Source of the DNA: an uncultured Gammaproteobacteria bacterium
Lineage (GTDB): Bacteria > Patescibacteriota > Microgenomatia > UBA8517
Length of the DNA stretch: 64,000 nucleotides
Assembly: GCA_965231135.1 (NCBI GenBank)
Contig: OZ246419.1
Coordinates: 385,488-449,487 of the forward strand
Reading direction: 5' to 3'
The position numbers and the translations under genes were made by a program. Positions 36,830-51,465 of this stretch are shown piece after piece. Numbering within the stretch: the first letter of the stretch is position 1; each line of letters begins with the position of its first letter. The notes under the pieces were generated by a model. The model worked only from the letters and a program-made list of their open reading frames with translations. It was not told the DNA's origin and searched no databases.

Positions 36830-37559
36830 ACTCTGTTAAATCAAAATTTCTTGTGATAAAGACAGACGCAGAACCTCCATCTAAATTGATAATATCTGCA
36901 AAATTAATATTTTCTTTTTGTTCAAATTGATTTAATAAACTTGGAACATCGTTTAAAAACGGACCTGAAAATTCTGAATCCTTGTCATAAATAACTAAAA
37001 AATATAAATTATTGTTGCCGTCAACAGCTGCCAAAACTCTTCGAGAATTTTTATCATTTGTAATTTGTAAGCTGTCGTAAGAATTATTTTCTTTAATTAT
37101 TGGACCTGTTTGGACTGCAATTTGTAAATGGTCTTGTGGTAAATTTTGGGTAATTCTTGGAGTTGCGAAATCATTAACTGACAAAACACCATTTAATAAA
37201 TTGTTATTTTCATAATCTGAAATTGTATTTCCATTTGTAATAATTAATCCAAGAGGTTGATTGTTTGTACCATAAAACGGACCGTTTGCTAAAAACATAC
37301 AACTATTTTGATCTATTACATCTTTGGAAGAAAGCTTTTGAGAAAAATTGGGAATTAATTTTAAATTATTTATGTTTATTATTTGGTACCAGGAAAAAGT
37401 GTAATTATTTATTTCTGCAGAATTATTTTGAGCAACTGGAGTAGGGGATGGAATTTGAGCATTTGATTTTTGCGGATTAGTATTTTTGTTTTTAAGTATT
37501 AAAATACCAAAGATAACTAAAGGGATAAAAATTAAAATGGCAATTAAAAGTTTTCGCAT
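36795..37559 (-). CDS. secreted phosphodiester glycosidase family (DUF2233-like) protein
   Basis: N-terminal signal anchor. Motifs ANGPFY, RRVLAAVDGNNNLYFLVI and INLDGGSAS resemble the NAGPA/phosphodiester glycosidase family. Confidence 0.5.
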   Translation of the reverse strand: MRKLLIAILIFIPLVIFGILILKNKNTNPQKSNAQIPSPTPVAQNNSAEINNYTFSWYQIININNLKLIPNFSQKLSSKDVIDQNSCMFLANGPFYGTNNQPLGLIITNGNTISDYENNNLLNGVLSVNDFATPRITQNLPQDHLQIAVQTGPIIKENNSYDSLQITNDKNSRRVLAAVDGNNNLYFLVIYDKDSEFSGPFLNDVPSLLNQFEQKENINFADIINLDGGSASVFITRNFDLTEFNPVGAFFCQS

Positions 37560-38265
37560 ACAAGATATTATAGTTCACAATTGCAATTTTTTAAACTTTA
37601 ATCTATCCGAAAGTTCGGTTGATTTAATAATCACTTCCCCTCCTTACAATATTGGAATAGATTATGGAATTTATAACGATAACAAAACTTATAAAGAATA
37701 TCTTGAATTTACAAAAAAGTGGTTAGGAAAAAGTTTTGACATTTTAAAAAGTAACGGACGAATTTGCATTAATGTGCCAATTGACACAGGAAAGAACGGA
37801 AAAAGAAGTTTGGCCGCTGACTTAACAATTCTTGCAAAAAGAACTGGTTTTAAATATAAAGGAACAATTGTTTGGGATCATTCGACTTCGCTCATGACTA
37901 GTAGCAAACAAAAAAAGTTTTATGCAATGGCGTTTTCTAAAAATATAGAGTTAATTTTGATTTTTTACAAAGATGAATGGATTTCTGTAAAAAAAGAATT
38001 TAGAGATTATGTAAATGAAATTTGGAAATTTAGCGGCGAAAATCCAAAAAGAGTAAACCACCCTGCAGCTTTTCCAGTTGAGATTCCAAGAAGACTAATA
38101 AAAATGTTTAGCGAAACAAATGATATTGTTTTAGATCCGTTTTTGGGAAGCGGGACGACGCTTATGGCGTGTAAACAATTATTAAGAAAAGGAATTGGAA
38201 TAGAAATTGACGAGAAATATTTTGAAGGTTCAAAAACAAGAATTAGTGACCAAAATAAACACTAA
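37537..38265 (+). CDS. site-specific DNA methyltransferase (beta-class N6-adenine/N4-cytosine, ParB-less), apparently orphan
   Basis: Motif IV SPPY (VDLIITSPPYNIG) precedes AdoMet motif I (VLDPFLGSGTT) near the C-terminus, which is the beta-class order. No adjacent endonuclease candidate. The start at 37537 overlaps the divergent upstream gene by 23 nt. Confidence 0.75.
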   Translation: MAIKSFRIQDIIVHNCNFLNFNLSESSVDLIITSPPYNIGIDYGIYNDNKTYKEYLEFTKKWLGKSFDILKSNGRICINVPIDTGKNGKRSLAADLTILAKRTGFKYKGTIVWDHSTSLMTSSKQKKFYAMAFSKNIELILIFYKDEWISVKKEFRDYVNEIWKFSGENPKRVNHPAAFPVEIPRRLIKMFSETNDIVLDPFLGSGTTLMACKQLLRKGIGIEIDEKYFEGSKTRISDQNKH

Positions 38266-38495: not shown

Positions 38496-40073
38496 ATGCT
38501 TGTTGAGGATAAAAGAAATTTAGAGAAACAACTTTGGGCAGTTGCCAATGTTCTTCGAGGAAAAATGAATGCGGATGAATATAAAAATTATATTCTAGGC
38601 TTTATTTTTTACAAATACCTTTCTGAAAAACTTGAACGCTTTATAAACGATAAACTTCTTTCTAGAGAGAACTATAAATTTTCTGGAATTGGGGGAAACA
38701 CCCAAAAAGATAGGGATGTTTTAAAAGCAGTAGAACATGCCTGTGTAGAGCAGCTAGGATACTTTTTGAGACCCAGAGAACTGTTTTTGTATTTAGTCAA
38801 AAAAGGCAACCGGGAAATTAAAGGACAGGAAAACTTCATACTTGAAGATCTTAAAAGTGTTTTAAACACAATTGAACAAACATCAATGGGAACAGCGAGT
38901 GAAGATGATTTTAAAGGTTTGTTTGATGATGTAGATTTAACTTCTTCAAAACTTGGGAAAACTGAGACTAAGAAAAATGAGGTAATTGTTGAAGTCTTAA
39001 CATTGCTTTCTGGAATTGATTTTAAATTGGAAGATACCAAAAGCGATCTTTTGGGAGATGCTTATGAATATTTGATTGGAGAGTTTGCGGCAGGTGCTGG
39101 TAAAAAGGGAGGGGAATTTTATACACCTGCTCAAGTTTCAAGATTATTGTCGAAAATTGTTACTGAAGGAAAACAAAGAATTAAATCGGTTTATGATCCG
39201 ACATGTGGTTCAGGGTCGCTTCTTCTTCGCGTTGGGGATTTTGCACAAATTGTTGATTATTACGGACAGGAATTAAACCCTACAACTTACAATTTGGCAC
39301 GTATGAATATGATCCTTCATGGAGTTCGTTTTGACCATTTTAGTATTAGGCATGGCGATACGCTAACTGATGACATGCATCAAGATTTACAAGCTGAAGC
39401 AGTTGTTGCTAATCCTCCATTTTCAGCAGATTGGGAGAGTAATAAAAATCCTTTGCTTGAACAGGATGAGCGGTTTTCTCAGTACGGAAGATTAGCTCCA
39501 AAGGGATATGCGGATTATGCGTTTGTGACCCATATGATTTATCATTTGGCAGATAACGGCGTAATGGCAGTAGTTCTTCCCCATGGAGCACTCTTTAGGG
39601 GAGGAGCAGAAGGCCAAATACGAAAGCACATAATTGAAAGACAAAATTATCTGGATGCAGTGATAGGGCTTCCGGCAAATCTTTTTTATGGCACTTCAAT
39701 TCCAGCTTGTATCCTAATTTTCAAAAAATGCAGAAAAGAAGATCAAGATATTTTATTTATTGACGCCTCGAAAGAGTTTGAAAAAGGAAAAAATCAAAAT
39801 AAATTAACAGATGAAAATATCGAGAAGATTTTTGAGACTTATAGAAATAGAAAAGAATTAAAAAGATATTCTCACAGAGCAAGTTTGAATGAAATAAAAG
39901 AAAATGAATATAACCTAAATATTCCAAGATATGTAGATACCTTTGAGCCAGAACCGGAAATTGATATAGAAAAAGTTGCAAAAGAAATTAAGACTTTGGA
40001 AATAGATGAAGTGAAACTTCAAGGAAAAATAGCAGAATTTTGCAAAGAATTAAAAATAGAAATCCCTTTTTGA
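38496..40073 (+). CDS. hsdM: Type I restriction-modification system, DNA methyltransferase subunit M
   Basis: N-terminal HsdM_N-like helical domain (LWAVANVLRGKMNADEYKNYILGFIFYKYLSE). AdoMet motif YDPTCGSGSLL. Catalytic NPPF (VVANPPFS). Confidence 0.9.
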   Translation: MLVEDKRNLEKQLWAVANVLRGKMNADEYKNYILGFIFYKYLSEKLERFINDKLLSRENYKFSGIGGNTQKDRDVLKAVEHACVEQLGYFLRPRELFLYLVKKGNREIKGQENFILEDLKSVLNTIEQTSMGTASEDDFKGLFDDVDLTSSKLGKTETKKNEVIVEVLTLLSGIDFKLEDTKSDLLGDAYEYLIGEFAAGAGKKGGEFYTPAQVSRLLSKIVTEGKQRIKSVYDPTCGSGSLLLRVGDFAQIVDYYGQELNPTTYNLARMNMILHGVRFDHFSIRHGDTLTDDMHQDLQAEAVVANPPFSADWESNKNPLLEQDERFSQYGRLAPKGYADYAFVTHMIYHLADNGVMAVVLPHGALFRGGAEGQIRKHIIERQNYLDAVIGLPANLFYGTSIPACILIFKKCRKEDQDILFIDASKEFEKGKNQNKLTDENIEKIFETYRNRKELKRYSHRASLNEIKENEYNLNIPRYVDTFEPEPEIDIEKVAKEIKTLEIDEVKLQGKIAEFCKELKIEIPF

Positions 40074-40074
40074 T

Positions 40075-40917
40075 ATGAAGCGAAACACCAAACTTGCGAT
40101 GTCAGTCCATGAGAGTAATATAAATGTTGCTAAAGTAGGAGCTGAAGATTATATCTGTTTAACAGATATGGCTCGTAGTGCTGGTGCGGATAGAGCACTT
40201 CACAGTTGGCTAAGATCAAAAAACACAATAGATTTCTTGGGGTTTTGGGAGAAGATAAATAACCCTGATTTTAAAATACACGAATTCGTGTATTTTAAAA
40301 ATAATGCAGGTTCGAATAGCTTTAATCCATCAGTTGCTGATTGGATATTGAAGACAGGTGCAAAAGGTATTTTTTCTAAAAAAGGACGGTATGGTGGAAC
40401 ATACGCACACAAAGATATCGCTTTTGAGTTTGGAAGTTGGCTGAGTCCTGAGTTTAAGTTGTTGATAATTACAGAATTTCAAAGGTTGAAGGAGCGTGAG
40501 CAGAAATTTGCACGATGGGATGCACATAGATATTTGAGTAGAGTCAACTACAAGTTGCACACTGATTCTATTAAAAATGTGCTGCTACCATTTCTCCAAT
40601 TAGCTAAATCAGACGAAACATTTGTATATATAGATGAGGCAGATCTTTTGAACAAAATTGTATTTGGTCAAACTGCTTCAGAATGGAGAGCCAAAAATAA
40701 GAAATTGACAAAATCAGGACGAAATCAACGAGATTATGCATCCTCTCAGGAATTAGTTATACTTGCAAACCTGGAAAATTTGAATGCACATTTTATAAAT
40801 GAAAAGAAAACGCAAAAGGAGAGGGTGACACTTTTGATAGACTCGGCAGAAAGGCAATTACGAACTTTTATTAAAGAAGACGAAGAAGAGCAAAAACTTT
40901 TAGAAGCAAAGAAATAA
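40075..40917 (+). CDS. KilA-N domain-containing protein embedded in the Type I R-M operon
   Basis: N-terminal region (VAKVGAEDYICLTDMARSAG....SWLRSKNTIDFLGFWE) matches the KilA-N DNA-binding domain. The C-terminal half is helical. It starts 2 nt after the hsdM stop. Confidence 0.55.
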   Translation: MKRNTKLAMSVHESNINVAKVGAEDYICLTDMARSAGADRALHSWLRSKNTIDFLGFWEKINNPDFKIHEFVYFKNNAGSNSFNPSVADWILKTGAKGIFSKKGRYGGTYAHKDIAFEFGSWLSPEFKLLIITEFQRLKEREQKFARWDAHRYLSRVNYKLHTDSIKNVLLPFLQLAKSDETFVYIDEADLLNKIVFGQTASEWRAKNKKLTKSGRNQRDYASSQELVILANLENLNAHFINEKKTQKERVTLLIDSAERQLRTFIKEDEEEQKLLEAKK

Positions 40918-40919
40918 AC

Positions 40920-42143
40920 ATGATGATTAAAATTCCCAAACTCAGATTTCCTGAATTTAGTGGGGAGTGGGAAGAAAAAAAAATGGGGGATGTAGTGTGG
41001 CGAATTAAGACAGGAGTAAGTGTCAATTCTGAAGAAAGATTAAAGTTAACTAGCGAGTTGGGTATTTTAAAAACAAGTGCAGTTTTTAAAAGAAAATTTA
41101 AGCCTTATGAGCATAAAACTATTTTGTTGAGTGAGAATAAGAGAGCAAAAATTAATCCTAAAAAGGGAACTGTAATTGTTAGTAGGATGAACACCCCCGG
41201 TTTAGTAGGTGAAAGTGCCTATGTTTATGAAGACCATGACGATTTATATCTTCCTGATCGACTTTGGCTAGTTGAGTTTAATAAATATAGCAATGGTGAA
41301 TTTATAAGCTTTCTGATTTCAGAAGGTAAAATTAGAAGTAAGTTATCGACTATTGCTACAGGCACGAGTAATAGTATGAAAAATATTTCGCAACCTGGGT
41401 TTTTGGCAATTCGTATTTCTTTACCAAATTCAGATGAACAACAGAAAATTGCCTTATTTTTAACTTCTGTAGATTCTTGGATTGAAAGCCTTAAAAAACA
41501 ACAGGAGGAATTAGAAAAATACAAAAAAGGCATGATGCAAAAGATTTTTAGTCAAAAAATAAGATATAAAGATGATAATGGTAAAAATTTTCCTAAATGG
41601 GAAGAAAATAAATTAGGAGATTTGTTTGACGAATGCAACGACAGAAAAGAAAATCAAAGTTTTGAAATGTTATCTATTTCGCAAAGTAAGGGCATTGTTA
41701 AGCAAGATACAACAATTAAGAAAGATAGTTCTAGTTTAGACAAATCCAAGTATAAAATAGTTCGAGTTGGAGACATAGCATATAACACCATGCGTATGTG
41801 GCAAGGTGCGTCTGCTGTTTCTAGTTTTGATGGCATAGTGAGTCCTGCATATACAGTTGTTAGACCTAAAAAAGGCAATGTTATTTTTTTTGGATATCTT
41901 TTTAAATATCCTCGAATAGTGTTTAATTTTTATAGATATTCTCAAGGGCTTACATCAGATACTTGGAACCTTAAATTTAAGCATTTTTCTGAAATAATTG
42001 TGACAATACCTGCGAGTACTAAAGAGCAAGAAAAAATTGCCAATTTCTTGACTTCAATTGATAATCTTCTACAATCCAAGCAACAGCAAATTTCTATGGC
42101 AGAAAATTGGAAAAAAGGCTTAATGCAAAGGATGTTTGTATAA
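40920..42143 (+). CDS. hsdS: Type I restriction-modification system, specificity subunit S (two target-recognition domains)
   Basis: Conserved N-terminal LRFPEFSGEWEE, a central repeat LPNSDEQQKIALFLTSVDSWIESLKKQQEELEKYKKGMMQKIF and a C-terminal repeat STKEQEKIANFLTSIDNLLQSKQQQISMAENWKKGLMQRMF. Confidence 0.85.
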   Translation: MMIKIPKLRFPEFSGEWEEKKMGDVVWRIKTGVSVNSEERLKLTSELGILKTSAVFKRKFKPYEHKTILLSENKRAKINPKKGTVIVSRMNTPGLVGESAYVYEDHDDLYLPDRLWLVEFNKYSNGEFISFLISEGKIRSKLSTIATGTSNSMKNISQPGFLAIRISLPNSDEQQKIALFLTSVDSWIESLKKQQEELEKYKKGMMQKIFSQKIRYKDDNGKNFPKWEENKLGDLFDECNDRKENQSFEMLSISQSKGIVKQDTTIKKDSSSLDKSKYKIVRVGDIAYNTMRMWQGASAVSSFDGIVSPAYTVVRPKKGNVIFFGYLFKYPRIVFNFYRYSQGLTSDTWNLKFKHFSEIIVTIPASTKEQEKIANFLTSIDNLLQSKQQQISMAENWKKGLMQRMFV

Positions 42144-42145
42144 AT

Positions 42146-42820
42146 ATGGCTAAATCAAAATTTTATCCTCCAAAATTTAACGAAGGTCAATTTCATTGTC
42201 CTCACTGCGGTGTTTATGCAAAACAATTTTGGGCGCATATAAGGGCAACGAATCTACATTTTTCCGATTTTGTTATCAGAAACAATACTCCTTTTGATGA
42301 AGCACTTTCTGTAGAGTGGAGAATTTCTAGATGTGAACATTGCGGAAATTATATGTTTTGGTTGAATCAAGACATCGTTTATCCAGATAAAATTTCAGTA
42401 GACGATCCGAATGATGATTTAAATCCAGATATAAAAAGAGACTATAAAGAAGCAGCGGAGATACTTCATAAATCTCCTAGGGGCTCGGCTGCACTTCTGC
42501 GACTGTCATTACAAAAATTATTAAAACAACTTGGTGAAGAAGGAAATAATATTAATGAAGATATAAAGAAATTAATCGCTAACGGACTTAATCCTACGAT
42601 TCAGAAAGCACTTGATTATGTAAGGATAACAGGAAACAACGCAGTTCACCCTGGACAAATTGATCTTTCTGATAATAAAGATATAGCGTTAAAACTTTTT
42701 GAGGTTATTAACTTTATCGCTGAAAAGACGATTAGTGAACCAAAAGAAGTTAACAGATTGTTCGACAGTCTCCCTGAAGATGAAAAAGAAAAAATTAAAA
42801 AGAGAGACAATCAAAACTAA
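42146..42820 (+). CDS. DUF4145-like protein with N-terminal double CxxC zinc ribbon, embedded between hsdS and hsdR
   Basis: CPHCG...CEHCG zinc-ribbon spacing. The helical C-terminal region (AAEILHKSPRGSAALLRLSLQKLLKQLG...ALDYVRITGNNAVH) resembles DUF4145, which is often seen in Type I R-M loci. It starts 2 nt after the hsdS stop and ends 1 nt before the hsdR start. Confidence 0.45.
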   Translation: MAKSKFYPPKFNEGQFHCPHCGVYAKQFWAHIRATNLHFSDFVIRNNTPFDEALSVEWRISRCEHCGNYMFWLNQDIVYPDKISVDDPNDDLNPDIKRDYKEAAEILHKSPRGSAALLRLSLQKLLKQLGEEGNNINEDIKKLIANGLNPTIQKALDYVRITGNNAVHPGQIDLSDNKDIALKLFEVINFIAEKTISEPKEVNRLFDSLPEDEKEKIKKRDNQN

Positions 42821-42821
42821 C

Positions 42822-45614
42822 ATGACCACACAATCTGAAGCACAACTAGAACTGGAACTTATACAACAGCTTAATAAGCTGGGGTTTGAGAGTGTTACAA
42901 TTCCTGACTCCACCGCTTTAATAACAAATCTTAAACTTCAACTTGAAAAGTTTAATGAAACTAAACTTACTGACAGGGAATTTGAGAAAATTCTTAATCA
43001 TCTTATGCATGGTGATAGATTTGATAAAGGTAAAACTTTGCGTGATAGATTTTTATTGCACCGAGATGATGAGACAACTTTTTATATTCGCTTTTTTAAT
43101 ATGGATCAGTGGTGCCGTAATGTTTATCAAGTTGCTCATCAGATAACGCAAATGGGGAATTATAAAAATAGATATGATGTAACGCTTCTTGTGAATGGAC
43201 TTCCACTTGTTCAAATAGAATTAAAGAGGCGAGGCGTTGAAATGAAAGAAGCCTTTAATCAGATAAATCGCTATCAGAGAAATACTTTTACTGGAACTTT
43301 GTTTGAATATATTCAAATATTTGTAATTAGTAATGGCGTAAATACGAAATATTTTGCTAATAATCCAAGGCAATTTTTTGAACAAACTTTCTTTTGGACA
43401 GATGAGAAGAACAGGAAAATTACAAAGTTAAACGAATTTGCTGATGTATTTTTAGAAAAATGTAACCTTTCAGAAATGATTGCTGAATATATTGTTTTAG
43501 CCGAAGCCAAAGATAGGACAATGATGATTTTGCGGCCCTATCAGTATTATGCAGTGAAGGCTATCCAAAAACGAGTTCGTGAAGGAAATAAAAATGGATA
43601 TATCTGGCATACAACTGGATCAGGAAAGACTTTAACTTCTTTTAAAACTAGCCAAATACTTTCTAGAATTCCTGAAGTTAAAAAAATACTTTTTGTAGTT
43701 GATAGAAAAGATTTAGATATTCAGACAACTAAAGAATTTAACTCTTTTTCCAAAGATTCTGTGGACGGGACAGAAAATACTAAAAATTTAGTTAAGCAGC
43801 TGAAAGATAAAAATAGAAAATTAATTGTTACAACAATTCAAAAACTGGATGTTGCTATAAGGCGCGAAAAATATTTGGACCAGTTTGCTTATTTGCAAGA
43901 CGAAAAAGTGATAATTATTTTTGATGAATGTCACAGAAGTCAGTTTGGTCTGACAAATGCGCGAATTAGAAATTTTTTCCATAACGCCCAGATGTTTGGG
44001 TTTACAGGCACTCCGATTTTTGCAGAAAACAACATTGGTGGGGTAACCACTGCAGATGTGTTTGGAGAATGCTTGCATAAATATGTTATTACTCATGCAA
44101 TTGAAGATAAAAATGTTTTAGGATTTGCTGTTGAGTATGTTGGTAAATATAAACAAAAGTTTCCAGATACTGTATATATGGATAATTTTGTTGATCCTAC
44201 GGTTTCAGGAATTGATACTAAAGAGGTTTTAGAAAGTGATGATAGGGTTTCGAAAATTACGGATTATATTTTGAGTGATTGGAAAAAGAAAACAAAGAAT
44301 GGAAAATTTAATGCTTTTTTTGCGGTTTCTAACATTGAAGTTTTGAAAAAATATTATAAGCATCTAAAGACCCGAAAACCTGAAGATTTTAAGCTTGCAA
44401 CAATTTTTACATATCAGGCAAATGAAGAAGAATCAACAGATATGCTTGATGTTGATGTTTTTGCAGAAGGGGCTGTAAATGAACAGTCCCGGGAATTTTT
44501 AGAAAAATGTATTAAAGACTATAACGAAGTTTTTGGAACAAATTTTTCTACTGATAAGTTTTATAATTATTACAAAGATTTACAAAAAAGAATTAAAGAT
44601 AAAGAGGTAGATTTAGTGTTGGTTGTAAACATGTTTTTAACTGGATTTGATAGTGCAAGGCTTAATACTTTATATGTTGATAAAAACCTTCGTTATCATG
44701 GACTTATTCAAGCATACTCAAGAACAAATAGACTTTTGAATGCTGATAAACCTCATGGAAATATTGTAACATTTCGGAATTTAAAAGAAGCTACTGACCA
44801 AGCACTTGCTTTGTTTGGCGATGAGAACGCAAGGGAAATTGTATTCAAAAAACCATATGAAGAACAAAAGATAGAGTTTGAAATCAAACTACAAGAACTT
44901 AGAGAAAAGACTCCAACAGTAGAATCAGTAGATAATTTGCAGGGAGATGAAGAAAAAGCTTCTTTTGTTAAAACATTTCGTGATTTGCTTAGAATAAAAT
45001 CGTCCTTGGAAACCTTTGCCGAATTTTCTTTTGACAATCTTGGAATAACAGAACAGGAATTTTATGATTATCAAAGTAAATATTTAGATATTTATGAAAA
45101 AAGGAAAAACCAAACTGAAGAAGAATCGGTTCTTGATCAAATTGATTTTGAAATTGAGTTAACAGTGCGTGATATTATTGATTTTGATTATATTATTAAA
45201 CTTATTGCGGGACTTAAAGATATTACTTCCAAAGCTCTTCGTGAGAAGAAAACCGAAGAGATACTCAAACTATTTGATCATAGCGTAAAGCTTCGAAGCA
45301 AAAAGGAGCTAATAAGAAAGTTTATTGAGGAGAATTTACCTAAGGTTGTTGATTCTGGCAAGGCAGAAGACGCATTTGAAAACTTTTGGAATAGTGAGCG
45401 ATCAAAACAACTTAAAGAAATTGCAATAAAGGAAAACATCCAAGAAGAAAAATTTGAAAAATTAATTAGTGAATATTTATATACTCAAAAACTGCCAAGC
45501 GGCCAAGATATTGTTGATTCATTGCCTCAAACACCGCATATTCTAGAAAGACAAGGGATTATCGACAGAATCAAAACAGCAATAGAAAAAATTGTAGAAA
45601 TATTTGAGTGGTGA
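42822..45614 (+). CDS. hsdR: Type I restriction-modification system, restriction subunit R
   Basis: N-terminal PD-(D/E)XK nuclease core (YDVTLLVNGLPLVQIELKRRG). SF2 helicase motif I HTTGSGKTLTS, motif II DECHRSQ, and motif III/VI regions. About 930 aa. Confidence 0.9.
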   Translation: MTTQSEAQLELELIQQLNKLGFESVTIPDSTALITNLKLQLEKFNETKLTDREFEKILNHLMHGDRFDKGKTLRDRFLLHRDDETTFYIRFFNMDQWCRNVYQVAHQITQMGNYKNRYDVTLLVNGLPLVQIELKRRGVEMKEAFNQINRYQRNTFTGTLFEYIQIFVISNGVNTKYFANNPRQFFEQTFFWTDEKNRKITKLNEFADVFLEKCNLSEMIAEYIVLAEAKDRTMMILRPYQYYAVKAIQKRVREGNKNGYIWHTTGSGKTLTSFKTSQILSRIPEVKKILFVVDRKDLDIQTTKEFNSFSKDSVDGTENTKNLVKQLKDKNRKLIVTTIQKLDVAIRREKYLDQFAYLQDEKVIIIFDECHRSQFGLTNARIRNFFHNAQMFGFTGTPIFAENNIGGVTTADVFGECLHKYVITHAIEDKNVLGFAVEYVGKYKQKFPDTVYMDNFVDPTVSGIDTKEVLESDDRVSKITDYILSDWKKKTKNGKFNAFFAVSNIEVLKKYYKHLKTRKPEDFKLATIFTYQANEEESTDMLDVDVFAEGAVNEQSREFLEKCIKDYNEVFGTNFSTDKFYNYYKDLQKRIKDKEVDLVLVVNMFLTGFDSARLNTLYVDKNLRYHGLIQAYSRTNRLLNADKPHGNIVTFRNLKEATDQALALFGDENAREIVFKKPYEEQKIEFEIKLQELREKTPTVESVDNLQGDEEKASFVKTFRDLLRIKSSLETFAEFSFDNLGITEQEFYDYQSKYLDIYEKRKNQTEEESVLDQIDFEIELTVRDIIDFDYIIKLIAGLKDITSKALREKKTEEILKLFDHSVKLRSKKELIRKFIEENLPKVVDSGKAEDAFENFWNSERSKQLKEIAIKENIQEEKFEKLISEYLYTQKLPSGQDIVDSLPQTPHILERQGIIDRIKTAIEKIVEIFEW

Positions 45615-45616
45615 AA

Positions 45617-46318
45617 ATGAATATAAAAACCATTGGAGAGTTTGGTGAGAAATATGTGGGAGAATTTTTGGTGGCTGATATTGGCAGGAGAGATGAAATA
45701 AAAAGTGATTGGTATGAGGGGTTGAAGTTTTTCTTTTCTAAGTCGTTTTATAGAGGAAGGAAGGATGAAATTTCTGAAAATTTTCAGAAACGTGCGATGG
45801 AAGTTGTAGAGAATTTTGACTTAAAAAATAATATTAAAAGATTTAAATCGAGTGAATTTGAGGAGCTTTTGGTTGCAAATAAAGTTAATAATAGGGTTGA
45901 TAGAAGAATGATTTGTCAGACAATAGAAATGATCAGACACAACAACGGAAGAAATATTGTTTTATATTCTATTGAACAAATTCATGATGGAAATATTTCT
46001 GGTGTTTATCAAGAATTATGTAATATTTACGGGGTTGCTGATAAGATTGCAACATTTTTTCTTCGAGATTTGGCTTTGGTTTTTGAATTAGAAAATGAAA
46101 TAAAAAAGCAAGATTTTATTTACTTTCAGCCAATTGATACATGGGTAAAGCAAGTTAGTGATAAACTTGGAGTTACTGAACCGAGAGATGACAGAGAAGT
46201 GACTAAAAGCAAAATAATAAATAAATGTTTAATTGAACACACATCTCCTCTTTTGTTTAATGCTGGAGCTTGGTATGTAGGTAAACATTCATTCGATATT
46301 CTTTTAAATTATGTCTGA
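45617..46318 (+). CDS. HhH-GPD superfamily-like DNA glycosylase (predicted)
   Basis: Helix-hairpin-helix-like segment LCNIYGVADKIATFFLRDLA, with a Lys where Nth-type bifunctional enzymes have their catalytic Lys. A downstream FQPIDTWVKQV resembles the PVDTHV Asp-containing loop of EndoIII/Ogg/AlkA-family enzymes. No Fe-S Cys cluster. Starts 2 nt after the hsdR stop. Confidence 0.4.
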   Translation: MNIKTIGEFGEKYVGEFLVADIGRRDEIKSDWYEGLKFFFSKSFYRGRKDEISENFQKRAMEVVENFDLKNNIKRFKSSEFEELLVANKVNNRVDRRMICQTIEMIRHNNGRNIVLYSIEQIHDGNISGVYQELCNIYGVADKIATFFLRDLALVFELENEIKKQDFIYFQPIDTWVKQVSDKLGVTEPRDDREVTKSKIINKCLIEHTSPLLFNAGAWYVGKHSFDILLNYV

Positions 46319-47069
46319 TTATTACAAACCAAACAGGAAAAGAAATATTTATGATCCGGAATCTCGCGAGCCTTTTCGGCTTAGCCGCTCTAAAATTGAT
46401 CTTTTTATAAATTGCCCGAGGTGTTTTTATTTGGATCGGCGACTTGGGGTTTCTCAACCTCCATCTTATCCGTTTTCTTTAAATAGTGCTGTTGATAAGC
46501 TTCTTAAAAAAGAATTTGATATTCACCGAAATGCAAAAACGCAGCATCCTTTAATGAAAGCGTATGGAATTGATGCAATTCCTCTAGCACACGAGAAAAT
46601 TGATGAATGGAGAGATTCATTAAGAAGAGGAGTAACTGCGCCAATAGATGGGACAAATGTGATTATTACTGGAGGAGTTGATGATGTGTGGGTAAACCTA
46701 GCTGGCGAGTTTATTATTGTTGACTACAAATCTACTTCAAAGGAGACGGAAGTTAATTTGGATGCTGATTGGCAGATAGCTTATAAAAGGCAAATGGAAG
46801 TTTATCAGTGGCTATTTCGTAAAAATGGATTTAAAGTTTCTGACACTGGATATTTTGTTTATTGTAACGGCAACACAGATAGAAAAGCATTTGATGCAAA
46901 GCTTGAATTTGATATCAAATTAATTGCCTATAAAGGGGATACTTCATGGATTGCAGAAACAATAATGAATGCAATCAATTGTTTGAAGTCTGATGAACTT
47001 CCAGAGTGTGGAGAGGCTTGTGATTATTGTGCTTATAGAAAAGCTGTGAAAGAATATGAGAAAGCTTAA
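46311..47069 (+). CDS. PD-(D/E)XK nuclease, Cas4/RecB-like with a four-Cys (Fe-S) cluster
   Basis: N-terminal Cys (INCPRCFY). Motif II GGVDDVWV, motif III IIVDYKS (D-x-K), QxxxY motif RQMEVYQW, and three C-terminal Cys (CGEACDYC). Overlaps the upstream gene by 8 nt. Confidence 0.6.
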   Translation: MSDYYKPNRKRNIYDPESREPFRLSRSKIDLFINCPRCFYLDRRLGVSQPPSYPFSLNSAVDKLLKKEFDIHRNAKTQHPLMKAYGIDAIPLAHEKIDEWRDSLRRGVTAPIDGTNVIITGGVDDVWVNLAGEFIIVDYKSTSKETEVNLDADWQIAYKRQMEVYQWLFRKNGFKVSDTGYFVYCNGNTDRKAFDAKLEFDIKLIAYKGDTSWIAETIMNAINCLKSDELPECGEACDYCAYRKAVKEYEKA

Positions 47070-47725
47070 CCTGTTTGTTCTGGATTTTTAACTTCTGGAA
47101 CTGGAGTTGCAAAGATATTATCAATTGAAGTATTTGGAATAATTAGATTTTTGCGATCGCAATTGACTGGTGGCTCTGTCCATAGTAATTTTCTCCAGTC
47201 TTTCTTTTTTGATGCAGCATCTTGCGCACTAAAATATTTATTACTTGCATCTTGAAGATTTTTTGCCGGAATTGTTGGATCAGTATTATTTTGACTATTT
47301 GGGTTTTCGAAGAGATTTTGAATGTACTCTGCGTCATCTCTTTGAGCTTTATACATATTGTATTGGAGAGTTGCTAAATCTTTGATATATTTTGGCTGAA
47401 ATATTTGGAATGCCCAGTTATTTATATATTTTGAATCTTTGTCTAACCAGTTATTTTCGAGGGGAATATATTTTTGAATACCTGAAATATAGTTATTGAA
47501 ATCTTGCATTGCTTCATCTTTTGAGCCATTATTGTTCATAACTTGCCACATCTGAAGATAAGAATTTTTATAAGCGATTAAGGCTGGATTTACATTATTA
47601 CATCTATCGTCGAAAATTTTTCCGTTTTCATCTGCTTGGGACTGGAGAATTCTTGAATATATAAATGTAGCTAACAGTAATATCAAGAAAGTCACACCGG
47701 TAATTTTTAGGATTTTCTTTTTCAT
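47066..47725 (-). CDS. secreted or membrane-anchored hypothetical protein
   Basis: N-terminal signal/TM (ITGVTFLILLLATFIYS), polar and Asn/Gln-rich. Convergent with the Cas4-like gene, overlapping it by 4 nt. Confidence 0.4.
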   Translation of the reverse strand: MKKKILKITGVTFLILLLATFIYSRILQSQADENGKIFDDRCNNVNPALIAYKNSYLQMWQVMNNNGSKDEAMQDFNNYISGIQKYIPLENNWLDKDSKYINNWAFQIFQPKYIKDLATLQYNMYKAQRDDAEYIQNLFENPNSQNNTDPTIPAKNLQDASNKYFSAQDAASKKKDWRKLLWTEPPVNCDRKNLIIPNTSIDNIFATPVPEVKNPEQTG

Positions 47726-47753
47726 CTTTATTTAGTAGAGTATAATTGGTTTT

Positions 47754-49007
47754 ATGAAAAAAATAAAAGTTTCTATTCAAGACGAAAACACTTTGGTGCT
47801 ATTGGAGGATGCTCAAAAAGGTGATTTGGTTGATCTTAAATCAATACATGAAACAGATATTGATAAATCTTCAATCGATAACCTAATTAAATCAATCAAA
47901 ACGGATGAGTTTGATACGCAATTAGAAGTTGCGAAACGTAGTATAGAAAAAGAGAAAAGACTTGAAGCTGAAATTAAAGAAAAGGAAGCACTTGCAAAAA
48001 GAGACCAGGAAATTGCAGCTCTGAACATAAGAATTCAGACAGCAGATATTGAGAAAAAACTTGCTGTTACAGAAGCAACAAAAAAAATTGAGAAAGAACG
48101 AAATGATTTAGTTAATGAAGTAAGAAATAAAGAGATAGAAAAACAATTACTTGAGAAGTCTCTAACCGAGAAATTTTCTGCCGAACTTAAGACTAAAGAT
48201 GATGTTATCAAGATGAAAGATGATGAGATTGCTCTTCGTAAAGATATGAAACTTAGATTGTCAACAAAAATGGTAGGCGAAACATTAGAGCAACATTGTG
48301 AGGTGGAATTTAACAAACTTCGAGCTACTGCTTTTCCAAAGGCCTATTTTGAAAAAGATAATGATTCTAGAAGTGGGAGTAAGGGAGACTACATTTATAG
48401 AGATGTGGATGAATCTGGTACTGAAATAATTTCAATTATGTTTGAGATGAAAAACGAAGGAGACGAGACGGCTACAAAACATAAGAACGAGGATTTTTTA
48501 CAAGAACTTGATAAAGATCGATTAGAAAAAAAATGTGAGTATGCTGTTTTGGTTACGTTATTGGAAATTGATAATGATTTATATAACTCCGGTATTGTTG
48601 ATGTTTCGCATAAATACCCCAAAATGTATGTAGTCCGTCCTCAGTTTTTTATTCCTATAATAACAGTGCTTCATAATGCTGCTATGAATTCACTTAAATA
48701 TAAGACAGAGCTTGCATTGGTGAGAAGTCAAAATATTGATATTACAAATTTTGAGAATGATATAAATAAATTTAAGGAAGGGTTTGCAGGTAATTTTGAT
48801 CTTGCTAGCCGTAAATTTAAAACAGCTATAGATGAAATTGATAAAACGATGGATCATTTACAGAAAACGAAAGAGGCTTTATTGTCATCTGTGAATAATC
48901 TTAGGCTTGCAAATAGTAAAGCACAGGATTTAACTATCAAGAAATTAACGCGTGGTAATCCTACAATGACAGCAAAATTTGAAGAAATAAATCAGAAAAT
49001 CAGTTGA
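47754..49007 (+). CDS. coiled-coil protein with C-terminal RmuC/DUF2130-like predicted PD-(D/E)XK domain
   Basis: Residues about 60-170 are Lys/Glu-rich heptad-like coiled coil. Downstream, [28 protein letters not shown] has a D...hhhExK arrangement, followed by [16 protein letters not shown]...YAVLV...GIVDVS, reminiscent of DUF2130/RmuC proteins. Assignment is from memory. Confidence 0.4.
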
Positions 49008-49110
49008 TCATACTCATGGAATGTATGGAGATTTGCAGGGAATAATTGGAAAATCTCTTCCTGAAATTGAAACACTTGCAATTGACACTGGAGAGAACTA
49101 GGATTTAGTT

Positions 49111-49509
49111 ATGAAAGGATACAAAGCAAATATTGAAGAGCTGGTTTCTAAAAATGAATATTTTAGACAAGTTCTTTATACTTCAAAACATTCGCAGTTA
49201 GTTTTGATGACATTAAAACCTTCTGAAGAAATTGGTATGGAAATCCATCCTGATAATGACCAGTTTTTCCGTTTTGAAAGCGGACAGGGAAAGGTAATTA
49301 TTGATGGAAATGAGTATGATGTAAATGGAGGGGATGTTGTTATTGTTCCGGCCGGAGCAAATCATAATGTGATCAATGTGTCATCTGGAGAATATTTAAA
49401 AATGTACACCATTTATTCTCCAGCTCATCACAGAGATGGAGTTATACATAAAACAAAAGAAGAAGCAGAGGCAGATGACGAAAAATTTGATGGCAAAACG
49501 ACAGAATAA
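49111..49509 (+). CDS. cupin domain protein
   Basis: Cupin motif 2 G(x)5PxG(x)2H(x)3N is present as GDVVIVPAGANHNV. Motif 1 is partial (GMEIHPDND...E). Confidence 0.6.
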   Translation: MKGYKANIEELVSKNEYFRQVLYTSKHSQLVLMTLKPSEEIGMEIHPDNDQFFRFESGQGKVIIDGNEYDVNGGDVVIVPAGANHNVINVSSGEYLKMYTIYSPAHHRDGVIHKTKEEAEADDEKFDGKTTE

Positions 49510-49992
49510 ATGAAAATAAACGGTAGTTTTAAATGGAATAACAAAGATATAAATTTTACTTACAAAGATATTGATTCATTTAGCGATATTCCACTTGAAA
49601 AAATAAGACAATGTTATGGAGTTTGTTTTTATCAGAATAAAATTGTACTTGGTGTTTATAAAGATCACTGGAGTTTGATTGGAGGCACTAGGGAAAAGGG
49701 AGAAAAGCCAGAGGAGACACTGAGAAGGGAAATTTTAGAAGAATCAAATATGGAATTAATTAATTATTTGCCTATTGGTTTTCAGTATATTCCAGGCGAT
49801 GGTTCTAATGACTTTTATCAGCTAAGATATATATGTAAGGTAAAACCTTATGGTGACTTTGTTAAAGATCCGGGTGGAAACGTTACTGGTATAGAAATTA
49901 TAAATTCTGAGGATTTCTTGAATTATGTAAAGTGGGGAAAGGTAGGAGAAAGAATTTTGGAGAGAGCTATTGAATTAAAAGATAAAATATAA
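49510..49992 (+). CDS. NUDIX hydrolase
   Basis: Nudix box GGTREKGEKPEETLRREILEESNM fits Gx5Ex7REUxEExGU, with the terminal G replaced by N. The start codon directly abuts the cupin stop. Confidence 0.7.
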   Translation: MKINGSFKWNNKDINFTYKDIDSFSDIPLEKIRQCYGVCFYQNKIVLGVYKDHWSLIGGTREKGEKPEETLRREILEESNMELINYLPIGFQYIPGDGSNDFYQLRYICKVKPYGDFVKDPGGNVTGIEIINSEDFLNYVKWGKVGERILERAIELKDKI

Positions 49993-50270: not shown

Positions 50271-50609
50271 ATGACAGAAATAAGTAATCCTTGTATTGAA
50301 AGTGGCTGCCAAGCCGCATGCTGCCATGATATGTGGTTTCAAAATATCCCCTTGCAAAAACTACCAAATCTTAAGAAATTTTTTGGAGAAATGACTCAAA
50401 TTGAATATTGGGATCTTGGTGCTGAATCAAAACGAGGTGTTTTTTATTGTATTTCTGGAGATAAAATATTAATGCATATAAATAAAATGTGTCCAAAAAA
50501 TAAAGGTCTTTATTGCCTGGGAAAAAACGATCCAGACAGACCGCAAGCTTGTGACAATATGGCTTTTGCTTCAAATGAATGTAGTCATATTCGAAATACT
50601 CGAAACTAG
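50271..50609 (+). CDS. cysteine-rich small protein (possible metal-binding), hypothetical
   Basis: CIESGCQAACCHD cluster plus additional Cys (CISGD, MCPKNKGLYC, ACDN, ECSH). A TATAAT-like box sits about 10 nt upstream. Confidence 0.4.
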   Translation: MTEISNPCIESGCQAACCHDMWFQNIPLQKLPNLKKFFGEMTQIEYWDLGAESKRGVFYCISGDKILMHINKMCPKNKGLYCLGKNDPDRPQACDNMAFASNECSHIRNTRN

Positions 50610-50631: not shown

Positions 50632-51465
50632 ATGCCTGATAAATATAAAGCAGTTTGGGTTTCTCATTCTTCAATAGCTGATTTTTTAAAATGCCCGAGA
50701 CTTTATTATCTTCGTAATGTTTATAAAGATAAAAAAACTGGACATAAAATCACAATTATGACTCCTCCTCTTGCTTTGGGGCAATCTGTGCATGAAGTAA
50801 TTGAATCTCTATCTTTTTTACCAGTTGAAGAGAGATTTAATGCAAAAATTTTTGAAAAATACGATGAAGCTTGGAAAAAAGTATCCGGGAAACTTGGAGG
50901 CTTTAGGGATTTAGAAAAAGAAAAAGAATATAAAGAAAGAGGAAGAGCAATGCTTCAAGTGATTATTGATAATCCAGGACCGCTTTCTCATAAGGCAATT
51001 AAAATACGAGCAGACGGAGGGCTTCCGTATTACTTTCTATCAGAAGAAGAAAATATTATTTTGTGCGGCAAAATTGACTGGATTGAATATTTAGAAGAAA
51101 CGGACGCTATAAATATTTTAGATTTTAAAACGGGAAAAAACGAAGAAGACGAAGATTCGCTGCAACTTCCAATTTATTATTTACTTGCAAAAAATTTACA
51201 AAAAAGAAAAGTTGAAAAAATAAGCTATTGGTATTTGGATCATCAAAATCCAAAAGATATTGTGGAAATGGAAATTCCAAATGAAATTGATGCAAAAACC
51301 AGAGTTTATGAAGTTGCAAAAAGAATAAAACTTGCAAGACAAATTGAGCTTTTCAAATGCCCAAAGGGAGGATGTTTTGCCTGCCGAGATTTAGAGAGAG
51401 TTTATAACGGTGAGGGAGAAAAAGTGGGCGAGAGCGAATATCGACAGGATATTTATATTTTGTAA
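50632..51465 (+). CDS. PD-(D/E)XK nuclease, Cas4/RecB-like with four-Cys cluster (second paralog)
   Basis: N-terminal Cys (FLKCPRLYY). Motif II GKIDWIEY, motif III ILDFKTGK, QxxxY LQLPIYYLL, and C-terminal CPKGGCFAC. Confidence 0.6.
   Translation: MPDKYKAVWVSHSSIADFLKCPRLYYLRNVYKDKKTGHKITIMTPPLALGQSVHEVIESLSFLPVEERFNAKIFEKYDEAWKKVSGKLGGFRDLEKEKEYKERGRAMLQVIIDNPGPLSHKAIKIRADGGLPYYFLSEEENIILCGKIDWIEYLEETDAINILDFKTGKNEEDEDSLQLPIYYLLAKNLQKRKVEKISYWYLDHQNPKDIVEMEIPNEIDAKTRVYEVAKRIKLARQIELFKCPKGGCFACRDLERVYNGEGEKVGESEYRQDIYIL

Follow-up and report, generated by a model that had tools for sequence, protein, structure and literature searches.

A DUF2130 protein with a PD-(D/E)XK-type core at the edge of a Type I restriction-modification block: a candidate nuclease with recurrent defence-gene neighbours

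The window analysed here, a 64,000-nucleotide stretch of contig OZ246419.1 (GenBank assembly GCA_965231135.1) from an uncultured member of the Patescibacteriota, carries a gene of the Pfam family DUF2130 (47754..49007, + strand; all coordinates without a locus identifier are those of the window). The gene is placed at the 3' edge of a block made up of a Type I restriction-modification (R-M) operon and a Cas4-like nuclease gene. The open reading frame (ORF) starts with ATG and encodes 417 amino acids (aa) plus the stop codon, exactly as an earlier sequence-only reading of this DNA had claimed, and the motifs quoted in that reading lie at residues 211-217 (GDYIYRD), 224-235, 241-256 and 263-267 (YAVLV) of the product. 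The protein is soluble, with a mass of about 47 kDa. We tentatively propose, with somewhat less than even confidence, that it is a divalent-metal (Mg)-dependent DNA nuclease that accompanies defence islands.

The assignment to DUF2130 (PF09903), also made in the sequence-only reading, extends over the whole domain model: residues 144-400 cover positions 4-254 of a profile of 255, with an E-value of 1.1e-87 and 294 bits against a gathering cutoff of 26.7, which passes the membership threshold and, as profile scores are read, is well above the chance level. This is the sole Pfam match of the protein at E ≤ 0.01; profile searches with NCBIfam, PADLOC and PHROG yielded no match. The residues conserved across the Pfam family (GE.LEQHC, GDY, FEMKNE, CEYAVLV, RPQFF, NPTM) are all present in the window protein and are invariant or at least 90% conserved in both homolog alignments, one of 54 close homologs and the other of 132 diverse representatives (42-58% identity). 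The family, which Pfam places in the PD-(D/E)XK clan, is large: the matches fell into more than 8,000 clusters formed at 90% identity (the best matches are 62-81% identical to the window protein) and, after clustering at 50% identity, 674 representatives with E ≤ 1e-30; identity of 60-78% is found across Patescibacteria, Bacteroidota, Pseudomonadota, Firmicutes and Verrucomicrobia. The window gene is already known. A 100% identical NCBI protein, encoded on an 810-kb contig, is labelled [quoted passage not shown], and DUF2130 (PF09903, COG4487) appears in row 109 of the survey by Steczkiewicz et al. (2012; PMC3424549) as a PD-(D/E)XK family of unknown function. The nuclease core is accordingly established knowledge since 2012, and the sequence-only reading was mistaken in calling it cryptic. 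The literature searched for DUF2130, COG4487, PF09903, MG148 and TrlF held catalogue mentions only and no functional data.

The PD-(D/E)XK-type core, delineated from AlphaFold2 models and conserved residues, is predicted to span residues 172-295 (48267..48638, + strand). Its secondary structure elements follow the order alpha-beta-beta-beta-alpha-beta (helix 178-192, strands 198-201, 213-218 and 224-233, helix 245-258, strand 263-268), identically in a model of the full-length protein (predicted local distance difference test, pLDDT, 71.6) and in a model of the domain alone (69.7). Strand 213-218 begins right after D212, strand 224-233 has E231 and K233 at its end, and E176 and E179 are located on or just before helix 178-192; as modelled, D212 and E231/K233 occupy the catalytic-residue positions of PD-(D/E)XK enzymes. 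D212, E231 and K233 are invariant in the close homologs, and among the diverse representatives D212 is again invariant, with E231 and K233 conserved in at least 90%. Conservation in both alignments extends to E176 and E179 of the GETLEQHC helix, along with D212 (GDY), E231-x-K233 (FEMK) and R295-P296-Q297. The complete E...D...ExK set, near-invariant family-wide, is the signature expected of a retained, if so far putative, active site. The top matches in a Foldseek search of the PDB, all of them weak, are restriction-endonuclease folds (BstEII, E = 0.023; YaeQ, 0.038; EcoT38I, SgrAI and MspJI), with Card1, Can2 and MUS81 also among the top matches; when the PDB was searched by sequence, with the protein alone or with the family profile, the result was coiled-coil noise only. 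The PD-(D/E)XK-like core of the sequence-only reading is thus borne out by predicted topology and conserved catalytic residues: the profile similarity to DUF2130 is present, and so is a restriction-endonuclease-like core in the predicted fold.

Some members of the PD-(D/E)XK superfamily are non-nucleases or RNases. This background, the weak Foldseek matches and a helical arm that makes up more than half of the protein are what can be said for a reading in which the core has no catalytic activity, or acts on RNA, with the protein serving mainly as a coiled-coil scaffold or sensor. We regard such a reading as very unlikely because the catalytic set is complete and invariant or nearly so throughout the family.

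The regions that surround the core are largely helical. Residues 1-35 (47754..47858, + strand) are predicted by AlphaFold2 to form a small beta domain, with strands at 6-10 and 13-16 modelled at low pLDDT. This domain is a Cys-less variant: across the DUF2130 family, about 84-90% of the members have an N-terminal CPxC knuckle (a CxxC was found within the first 60 residues in 126 of the 150 family representatives, with the consensus MxEIKCPxCG), whereas the start of the window protein is free of cysteines; the knuckle is typical of the family and not strictly defining. A Cys-less beta-hairpin N-terminus is common to the window protein and its relatives from the Candidate Phyla Radiation (CPR). 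Two cysteines of the core, C182 (nt 48297-48299) and C261 (nt 48534-48536), are shared by at least 90% of family members. This pair and the CPxC that most members have could make up a metal site of four Cys; of these residues, the window protein retains C182 and C261 and is missing the CPxC.

The long charged helical arm follows (residues 38-170; 47865..48263, + strand), modelled as one unbroken helix with mid-helix pLDDT of 75-91. Residues 45-165 are 35% Lys plus Glu and 49% charged, with no Pro or Gly. The sequence-only reading had described a Lys/Glu heptad coiled coil; the long charged helix is confirmed, and the heptad pattern is borne out for the C-terminal part only, since hydrophobic periodicity of 3.5 residues is not significant in this arm (p about 0.12). 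It becomes significant only in the C-terminal helix 300-400 (best period 3.5 residues, p about 0.005-0.012). The arm of the window protein is at the short end of the family range. Among the DUF2130 homologs P0001-P0270, 123 to 377 residues separate the N-terminal knuckle from the LSTKM motif, and arm length changes in steps of 22 residues (149, 171, 193, 215; 175, 197; 179, 201), with the insertions at one site; judged from these lengths, the steps would fit 22-mers repeated in tandem or, alternatively, an antiparallel helical hairpin that is lengthened symmetrically. The C-terminal helical or coiled-coil region (residues 296-417; 48639..49004, + strand) holds a strongly conserved stretch with many invariant alignment columns and is rendered by AlphaFold2 as helices 296-326, 331-399 and 403-416 in the full-length model and as one helix, 137-235, in the domain-only model.

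Another line of evidence comes from gene neighbourhoods, which were compared across 163 independent DUF2130 loci, 83 of these from species-representative genomes and 80 from metagenomes. The commonest neighbour family is found at no more than 12 of the 163 loci, so that DUF2130 is without an obligate partner. The recurrent neighbours are almost all defence genes, GmrSD among them. At 23 loci (about 14%), a defence gene is immediately adjacent to DUF2130 on the same strand, and at 33 loci the flanks contain at least one gene of a panel of seven defence families; the distances between DUF2130 and its same-strand defence neighbours, including a plasmid-encoded Ppl-like ATPase, are 2-136 nt. In a PADLOC search at E ≤ 1e-10, the ORFs adjoining DUF2130 matched 159 families, compared with 44 for distal control ORFs located 4-5 genes away, and models of the OLD/GajA/AriA type were matched by 4-6 adjacent ORFs each, compared with one ORF for each of the distal families; these are per-family totals, and the comparison is hence semi-quantitative.

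Four kinds of same-strand arrangement recur. Nine loci combine DUF2130, in either order and with gaps of 13-119 nt, with a giant protein of the Hhe/PDC-S37 type that consists of DUF4011, SF1-helicase, REase_MTES_1575 and DUF3320 domains (PADLOC PDC-S37, 1254 bits; Hhe, E = 4.5e-175). DUF2130 precedes the helicase gene at L024 (7959-15047), L025, L033, L115 and L125, and follows it at L062, L086, L114 and L179; identity between the Hhe helicases of different lineages is no higher than 23-40%, an argument for a repeated or ancient association with DUF2130. At three of these loci, all from Bacteroidota (L024, L115 and L125), DUF2130 is directly preceded by a gene for a 272-aa ion channel (Ion_trans).

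A second arrangement is with Old, an ATP-dependent endonuclease of about 626 aa with AAA_15 and TOPRIM domains, which is encoded upstream of DUF2130 with a gap of 2 nt. This two-gene cassette is present in Beta- and Gammaproteobacteria (about 6076-9368 in L060, L064, L066 and L074) and on a Citrobacter freundii plasmid (NZ_CP056645; L186:5704-8996), where it has a Snf2/HKD helicase-DUF4391 pair on one side and a Type III R-M system on the other. No description of the pairing was found in the literature searched. Type II R-M genes, in the form of an EcoRI-type methylase together with a GmrSD_N-HNH enzyme, are found upstream at four loci, 6-24 nt away or overlapping.

In the fourth arrangement, HsdR is upstream of DUF2130 with a gap of 18-21 nt (L010, L056 and L106). 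Locus L056, from a member of the Yanofskybacteria, encodes HsdS, HsdR, DUF2130 and then a PDDEXK_1 nuclease, and at L010 and L106 the HsdR directly upstream of DUF2130 is 83-90% identical to that of L056. The nuclease gene of L056 overlaps the 3' end of DUF2130 and encodes a 66%-identical ortholog of the first of two PDDEXK_1 nucleases of the window; homologs of this nuclease are found near DUF2130 at 2 of the 163 loci, the second being L063, with 42% identity. HsdR, DUF2130 and the first nuclease therefore form a trio that is found again in a second CPR genome, whereas the cupin-NUDIX block that adjoins DUF2130 in the window is not. Downstream on the same strand, L056 (7599-10210) also encodes a 520-aa protein with no family assignment, a Macro-domain protein and a DUF7638/DUF7639 protein, which may be further island cargo. 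In a locus from Saccharibacteria (L083:7124-7804, - strand), a YfbU-family gene is divergently adjacent to DUF2130; a YfbU-fold protein is also what constitutes the lactococcal anti-phage system Kamadhenu (PMC11381338).

DUF2130 is carried by 70 plasmids, 51 of which are conjugative or mobilizable. The Lactococcus lactis phage-resistance plasmid pNP40 (L184:7686-11556; NC_010901.1 11074-14944) and p275D (L185) both encode DUF2130 47 nt upstream of a co-directional 846-aa TrlF-family AAA-like ATPase. On pNP40 this pair lies between the LlaJI R-M genes and an Abi gene, and on p275D it is found beside another R-M system. The TrlF ATPase of pNP40 is a partial match to the PADLOC defence protein Ppl; for the DUF2130 homolog of the same plasmid, PADLOC gave only a coiled-coil-level match to LmuB (E 1e-5, with 0 stretches passing), and the pair is not among the seven new systems of the lactococcal plasmidome study. 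On Bradyrhizobium elkanii pBel61 (L089:4599-7993), DUF2130 is located about 1 kb from the NHEJ (non-homologous end joining) ligase LigD and near a second DNA ligase, among insertion sequence (IS) elements.

Such contexts could also mean that DUF2130 is cargo of mobile elements, serving, for instance, maintenance, entry exclusion or competition between plasmids or integrative and conjugative elements, with defence islands acting merely as integration hot-spots. The number of plasmids and the share of conjugative or mobilizable ones, the IS elements beside DUF2130 on the Bradyrhizobium and Lactococcus plasmids, the high variability of its contexts and 15 matches in predicted viral or prophage contigs are compatible with this explanation. 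We consider it improbable, given that the gene is in most cases chromosomal and away from mobility genes and that same-strand gaps of 2-24 nt to Old, HsdR and Type II R-M genes recur in unrelated lineages, beyond chance; furthermore, DUF2130 is essentially absent from phages. A phage origin of the gene was rejected on the last ground: DUF2130 was detected in none of 50,697 phage genomes, the PHROG search gave no match, and only 15 of the 2.9 million viral contigs of IMG/VR matched.

In the window itself, the Type I R-M operon identified with Pfam (38496..45614, + strand) consists of HsdM (38496-40073), a KilA-N domain gene (40075-40917), HsdS (40920-42143), a DUF4145 gene (42107-42820) and HsdR (42699-45614), all on the + strand; an orphan N6_N4 methyltransferase gene lies just upstream (about 37486-38265). 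HsdR is followed on the + strand by a 236-aa ORF with no family match (45608-46318), which at its start shares 7 nt with the end of HsdR and at its end shares 8 nt with the start of the first Cas4-like PDDEXK_1 nuclease gene (46311-47069, + strand; E 7.6e-14). In L056, DUF2130 fills the slot between HsdR and the nuclease that this ORF occupies in the window. The ORF contains GVADKIATFFLRDL, which resembles a helix-hairpin-helix (HhH) hairpin; the idea of an HhH-type glycosylase was not supported by Pfam or by a PDB search. The first nuclease gene is separated from DUF2130 by a 219-aa ORF on the opposite strand (47066..47725, - strand) with an N-terminal hydrophobic segment, for which we found no match in Pfam, NCBIfam, PADLOC or PHROGs and no homolog at any related locus.

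A promoter-like site, TTTTCA-16-TATAAT (47719..47746, + strand), with 10 of 12 matches the best-scoring in the region, ends 7 nt upstream of the DUF2130 ATG and, if used, might give a leaderless or near-leaderless mRNA, a weak suggestion given that promoter-like sites are not enriched in this AT-rich region (29, compared with 26.7 in shuffles). Downstream of DUF2130, after a gap of 103 nt, come a Cupin_2 gene (49111-49509) and a NUDIX gene (49510-49992), both identified with Pfam, two small ORFs of 77 aa and 112 aa, and the second Cas4-like PDDEXK_1 nuclease gene (50632-51465; E 5.5e-20), with all four of the genes located here on the + strand; the 112-aa ORF (50271-50609), between the NUDIX block and the nuclease gene, encodes a Cys-rich product (11 Cys) with no family match. 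Against the Cas4 equivalog TIGR00372, the two PDDEXK_1 nucleases score 37 and 32 bits, below the cutoff of 65, so that "Cas4-like" is a fair description of both and "Cas4" is not. Housekeeping genes are found on both outer sides, with glycosyltransferases, DUF4012 and RecO before and LCP, TspO and GlyRS after.

The neighbours are as the sequence-only reading described them, with PDDEXK_1 genes on either side and the cupin and NUDIX genes adjoining, and that reading took the arrangement to suggest a function in nucleic-acid-targeting defence. In its strongest form, the cupin-NUDIX operon, the two Cas4-like nucleases and DUF2130 would make up one nucleic-acid-targeting system. All these genes are on the + strand, no terminator-like hairpin lies in the 103-nt gap between DUF2130 and cupin, and the NUDIX protein weakly matches the PADLOC candidate PDC-S07 (E 7.9e-06 over 33 residues). 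We give such a joint system hardly any credence, because none of the 163 loci has, near DUF2130, a homolog of the cupin, of the NUDIX protein, of the 77-aa or 112-aa ORF or of the second nuclease, so that neither the proposed conservation of the cupin-NUDIX neighbourhood nor the link to the second nuclease stands, and because independent assemblies break between DUF2130 and cupin. The latter are Logan assemblies of the same organism from three sequencing runs (L001, L187 and L188), which end 73 nt past DUF2130 and restart at the cupin gene. They also break just after HsdM, and the breaks at 40073/40075 and 49007-49111 suggest strain-level variability of these junctions. No flanking repeats were found at the break junctions, and a search for island boundary repeats over about 37-52.6 kb produced short AT-rich matches at chance level only. 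The neighbourhoods thus speak against a functional link between DUF2130 and the cupin and NUDIX genes beside it.

Combining the core with the gene neighbourhoods, we would picture the DUF2130 protein as a divalent-metal-dependent DNA endonuclease that may oligomerise through its helical arms. Having no recognisable specificity domain, it would probably recognise DNA structure or ends rather than a specific sequence. The neighbourhoods further suggest a portable protein that could serve defence islands as an accessory or second nuclease, and its likeliest job would then be to degrade or process foreign DNA, in parallel with or downstream of NTPase-driven defence machines. A broader generalisation, which we hold still more tentatively, would make DUF2130 a hitherto unrecognised nuclease module of very wide distribution that is associated with defence and works with several NTPase-driven machines of different mechanism (Old, Hhe, Type I and Type II R-M systems and Ppl-like ATPases). 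It might then be an effector of the second stage, shared by these machines and destroying the DNA that they have engaged, or else a defence system consisting of one gene.

Several observations weigh against a defence nuclease. The confidence of the core model is moderate (pLDDT about 60-80 in the core and about 70 overall), and the Foldseek E-values are weak, with 0.023 the best. About 80% of the 163 loci have no flanking gene of the seven-family defence panel, and many of the contexts are plainly housekeeping. Conservation across phyla is very high, which is atypical of fast-evolving defence genes. None of the system-component models of PADLOC-DB 2.0, candidate "PDC" families included, matches the window protein, and no nuclease activity or defence phenotype of any DUF2130 protein was reported in the literature searched. 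In the window, the intervening opposite-strand ORF implies that DUF2130 is not operonic with the R-M block. The inference of a defence function made in the sequence-only reading thus survives in part and on different grounds: recurrent operonic neighbours (Old, Hhe, HsdR, Type II R-M and the Ppl-like ATPase) argue for it, and the majority of loci, which lack a recognised defence neighbour, do not.

The main rival, a serious one, is that DUF2130 is an RmuC-like nuclease of DNA repair or recombination which processes, for example, ends, hairpins or branched intermediates and has no role in killing invaders; its defence neighbours could then reflect repair of collateral self-damage or mere clustering of accessory genes. 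Conservation of DUF2130 across phyla approaches that of RecA, the gene is present in the very small genomes of CPR bacteria and Mesomycoplasma, and most loci have housekeeping neighbours (YbeY, MurB and UDG in L002; CTP synthase and Fpg in L086). The ligase context on the Bradyrhizobium plasmid favours the repair reading as well, and the combination of helical arms with a PD-(D/E)XK core parallels the architecture of RmuC. The distribution of DUF2130 is, however, patchy and in part plasmid-borne, and the gene is tightly coupled, on the same strand, to at least five different defence modules; no conserved repair-gene partner emerges, with no neighbour family exceeding 12 of the 163 loci, and family-level similarity to RmuC is not detectable. 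On balance we find a repair role rather unlikely, less probable than the proposed defence-accompanying nuclease.

Given that DUF2130/COG4487 has thousands of members and is unusually conserved across many phyla, the interest lies in the function of the family and not in the window gene. The neighbourhood data provide a hypothesis for cultivable organisms: pNP40 in Lactococcus, Old-DUF2130 on the Citrobacter plasmid and Hhe-DUF2130 in Bacteroidota. Should DUF2130 prove to be a portable partner nuclease of defence systems, the defence repertoire would gain a common component, and a domain long listed without a known function would receive a role; were the broader notion of a module shared by many systems correct, the DUF2130-TrlF pair on pNP40 would be a directly testable example.

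Among known proteins, the one that the sequence-only reading had named alongside DUF2130 is RmuC (PF02646; YigN of E. coli), a member of the same superfamily according to PMC3424549. RmuC resembles the window protein in its helical or coiled-coil regions around a PD-(D/E)XK core and, by eye, in three motifs (the GE..L helix, the D-x-I-x-R strand and the (D/E)xK strand). Most of the 14 RmuC sequences that we aligned have a hydrophobic, membrane-anchor-like N-terminal segment, whereas the N-terminus of the window protein is polar, with no anchor. The RmuC label itself does not hold. The Pfam RmuC hidden Markov model did not match the window protein, and profile comparisons with hhalign were negative in four set-ups: the probability was 0.2% for a profile of the 54 homologs and 0.1% for one of the 132 representatives, both compared with E. 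coli RmuC, and the latter profile reached 2.4% (full-length) and 0.1% (domains only) with the 14-sequence RmuC alignment, which was assembled from plasmid matches, the DUF2130 and RmuC profiles both being shallow, so that remote homology could have been missed. On these results the protein is not a member of RmuC; a pairing of the D-strands recurred in the hhalign runs, in none of them significantly, and cannot be claimed. The likeness to RmuC is one of superfamily and architecture.

Neither can the biochemical role of RmuC proteins be called unknown, as the sequence-only reading had put it. The Shield system has an RmuC-domain protein, ShdA, which degrades DNA when assayed in vitro and by itself suffices for phage defence (PMC10270631). 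It is membrane-anchored, with an RmuC-type nuclease domain (PMC10270631), also has a long coiled coil and is often found within Type I R-M loci of Pseudomonas (PMC11090510). In both ShdA and DUF2130 a helical or coiled-coil region precedes a PD-(D/E)XK-type nuclease, and both are found by Type I R-M systems; ShdA differs in its membrane anchor and RmuC domain, the DUF2130 protein being soluble with a DUF2130 domain. On these shared features, ShdA would be the best functional analogy for DUF2130. Soluble truncations of ShdA could not be cloned and were apparently toxic (PMC10270631); DUF2130 is naturally soluble and must, if the analogy extends this far, be controlled in some other way. HamA of the Hachiman system, a part of the HamAB nuclease-helicase complex, offers a second parallel, as a PD-(D/E)XK-type effector nuclease encoded beside an NTPase or helicase, comparable to DUF2130 next to Hhe, Old, HsdR or the Ppl-like ATPase. 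Compared with HamA, DUF2130 has no fixed partner, and its neighbours carry nuclease domains of their own (MTES_1575, TOPRIM, HsdR).

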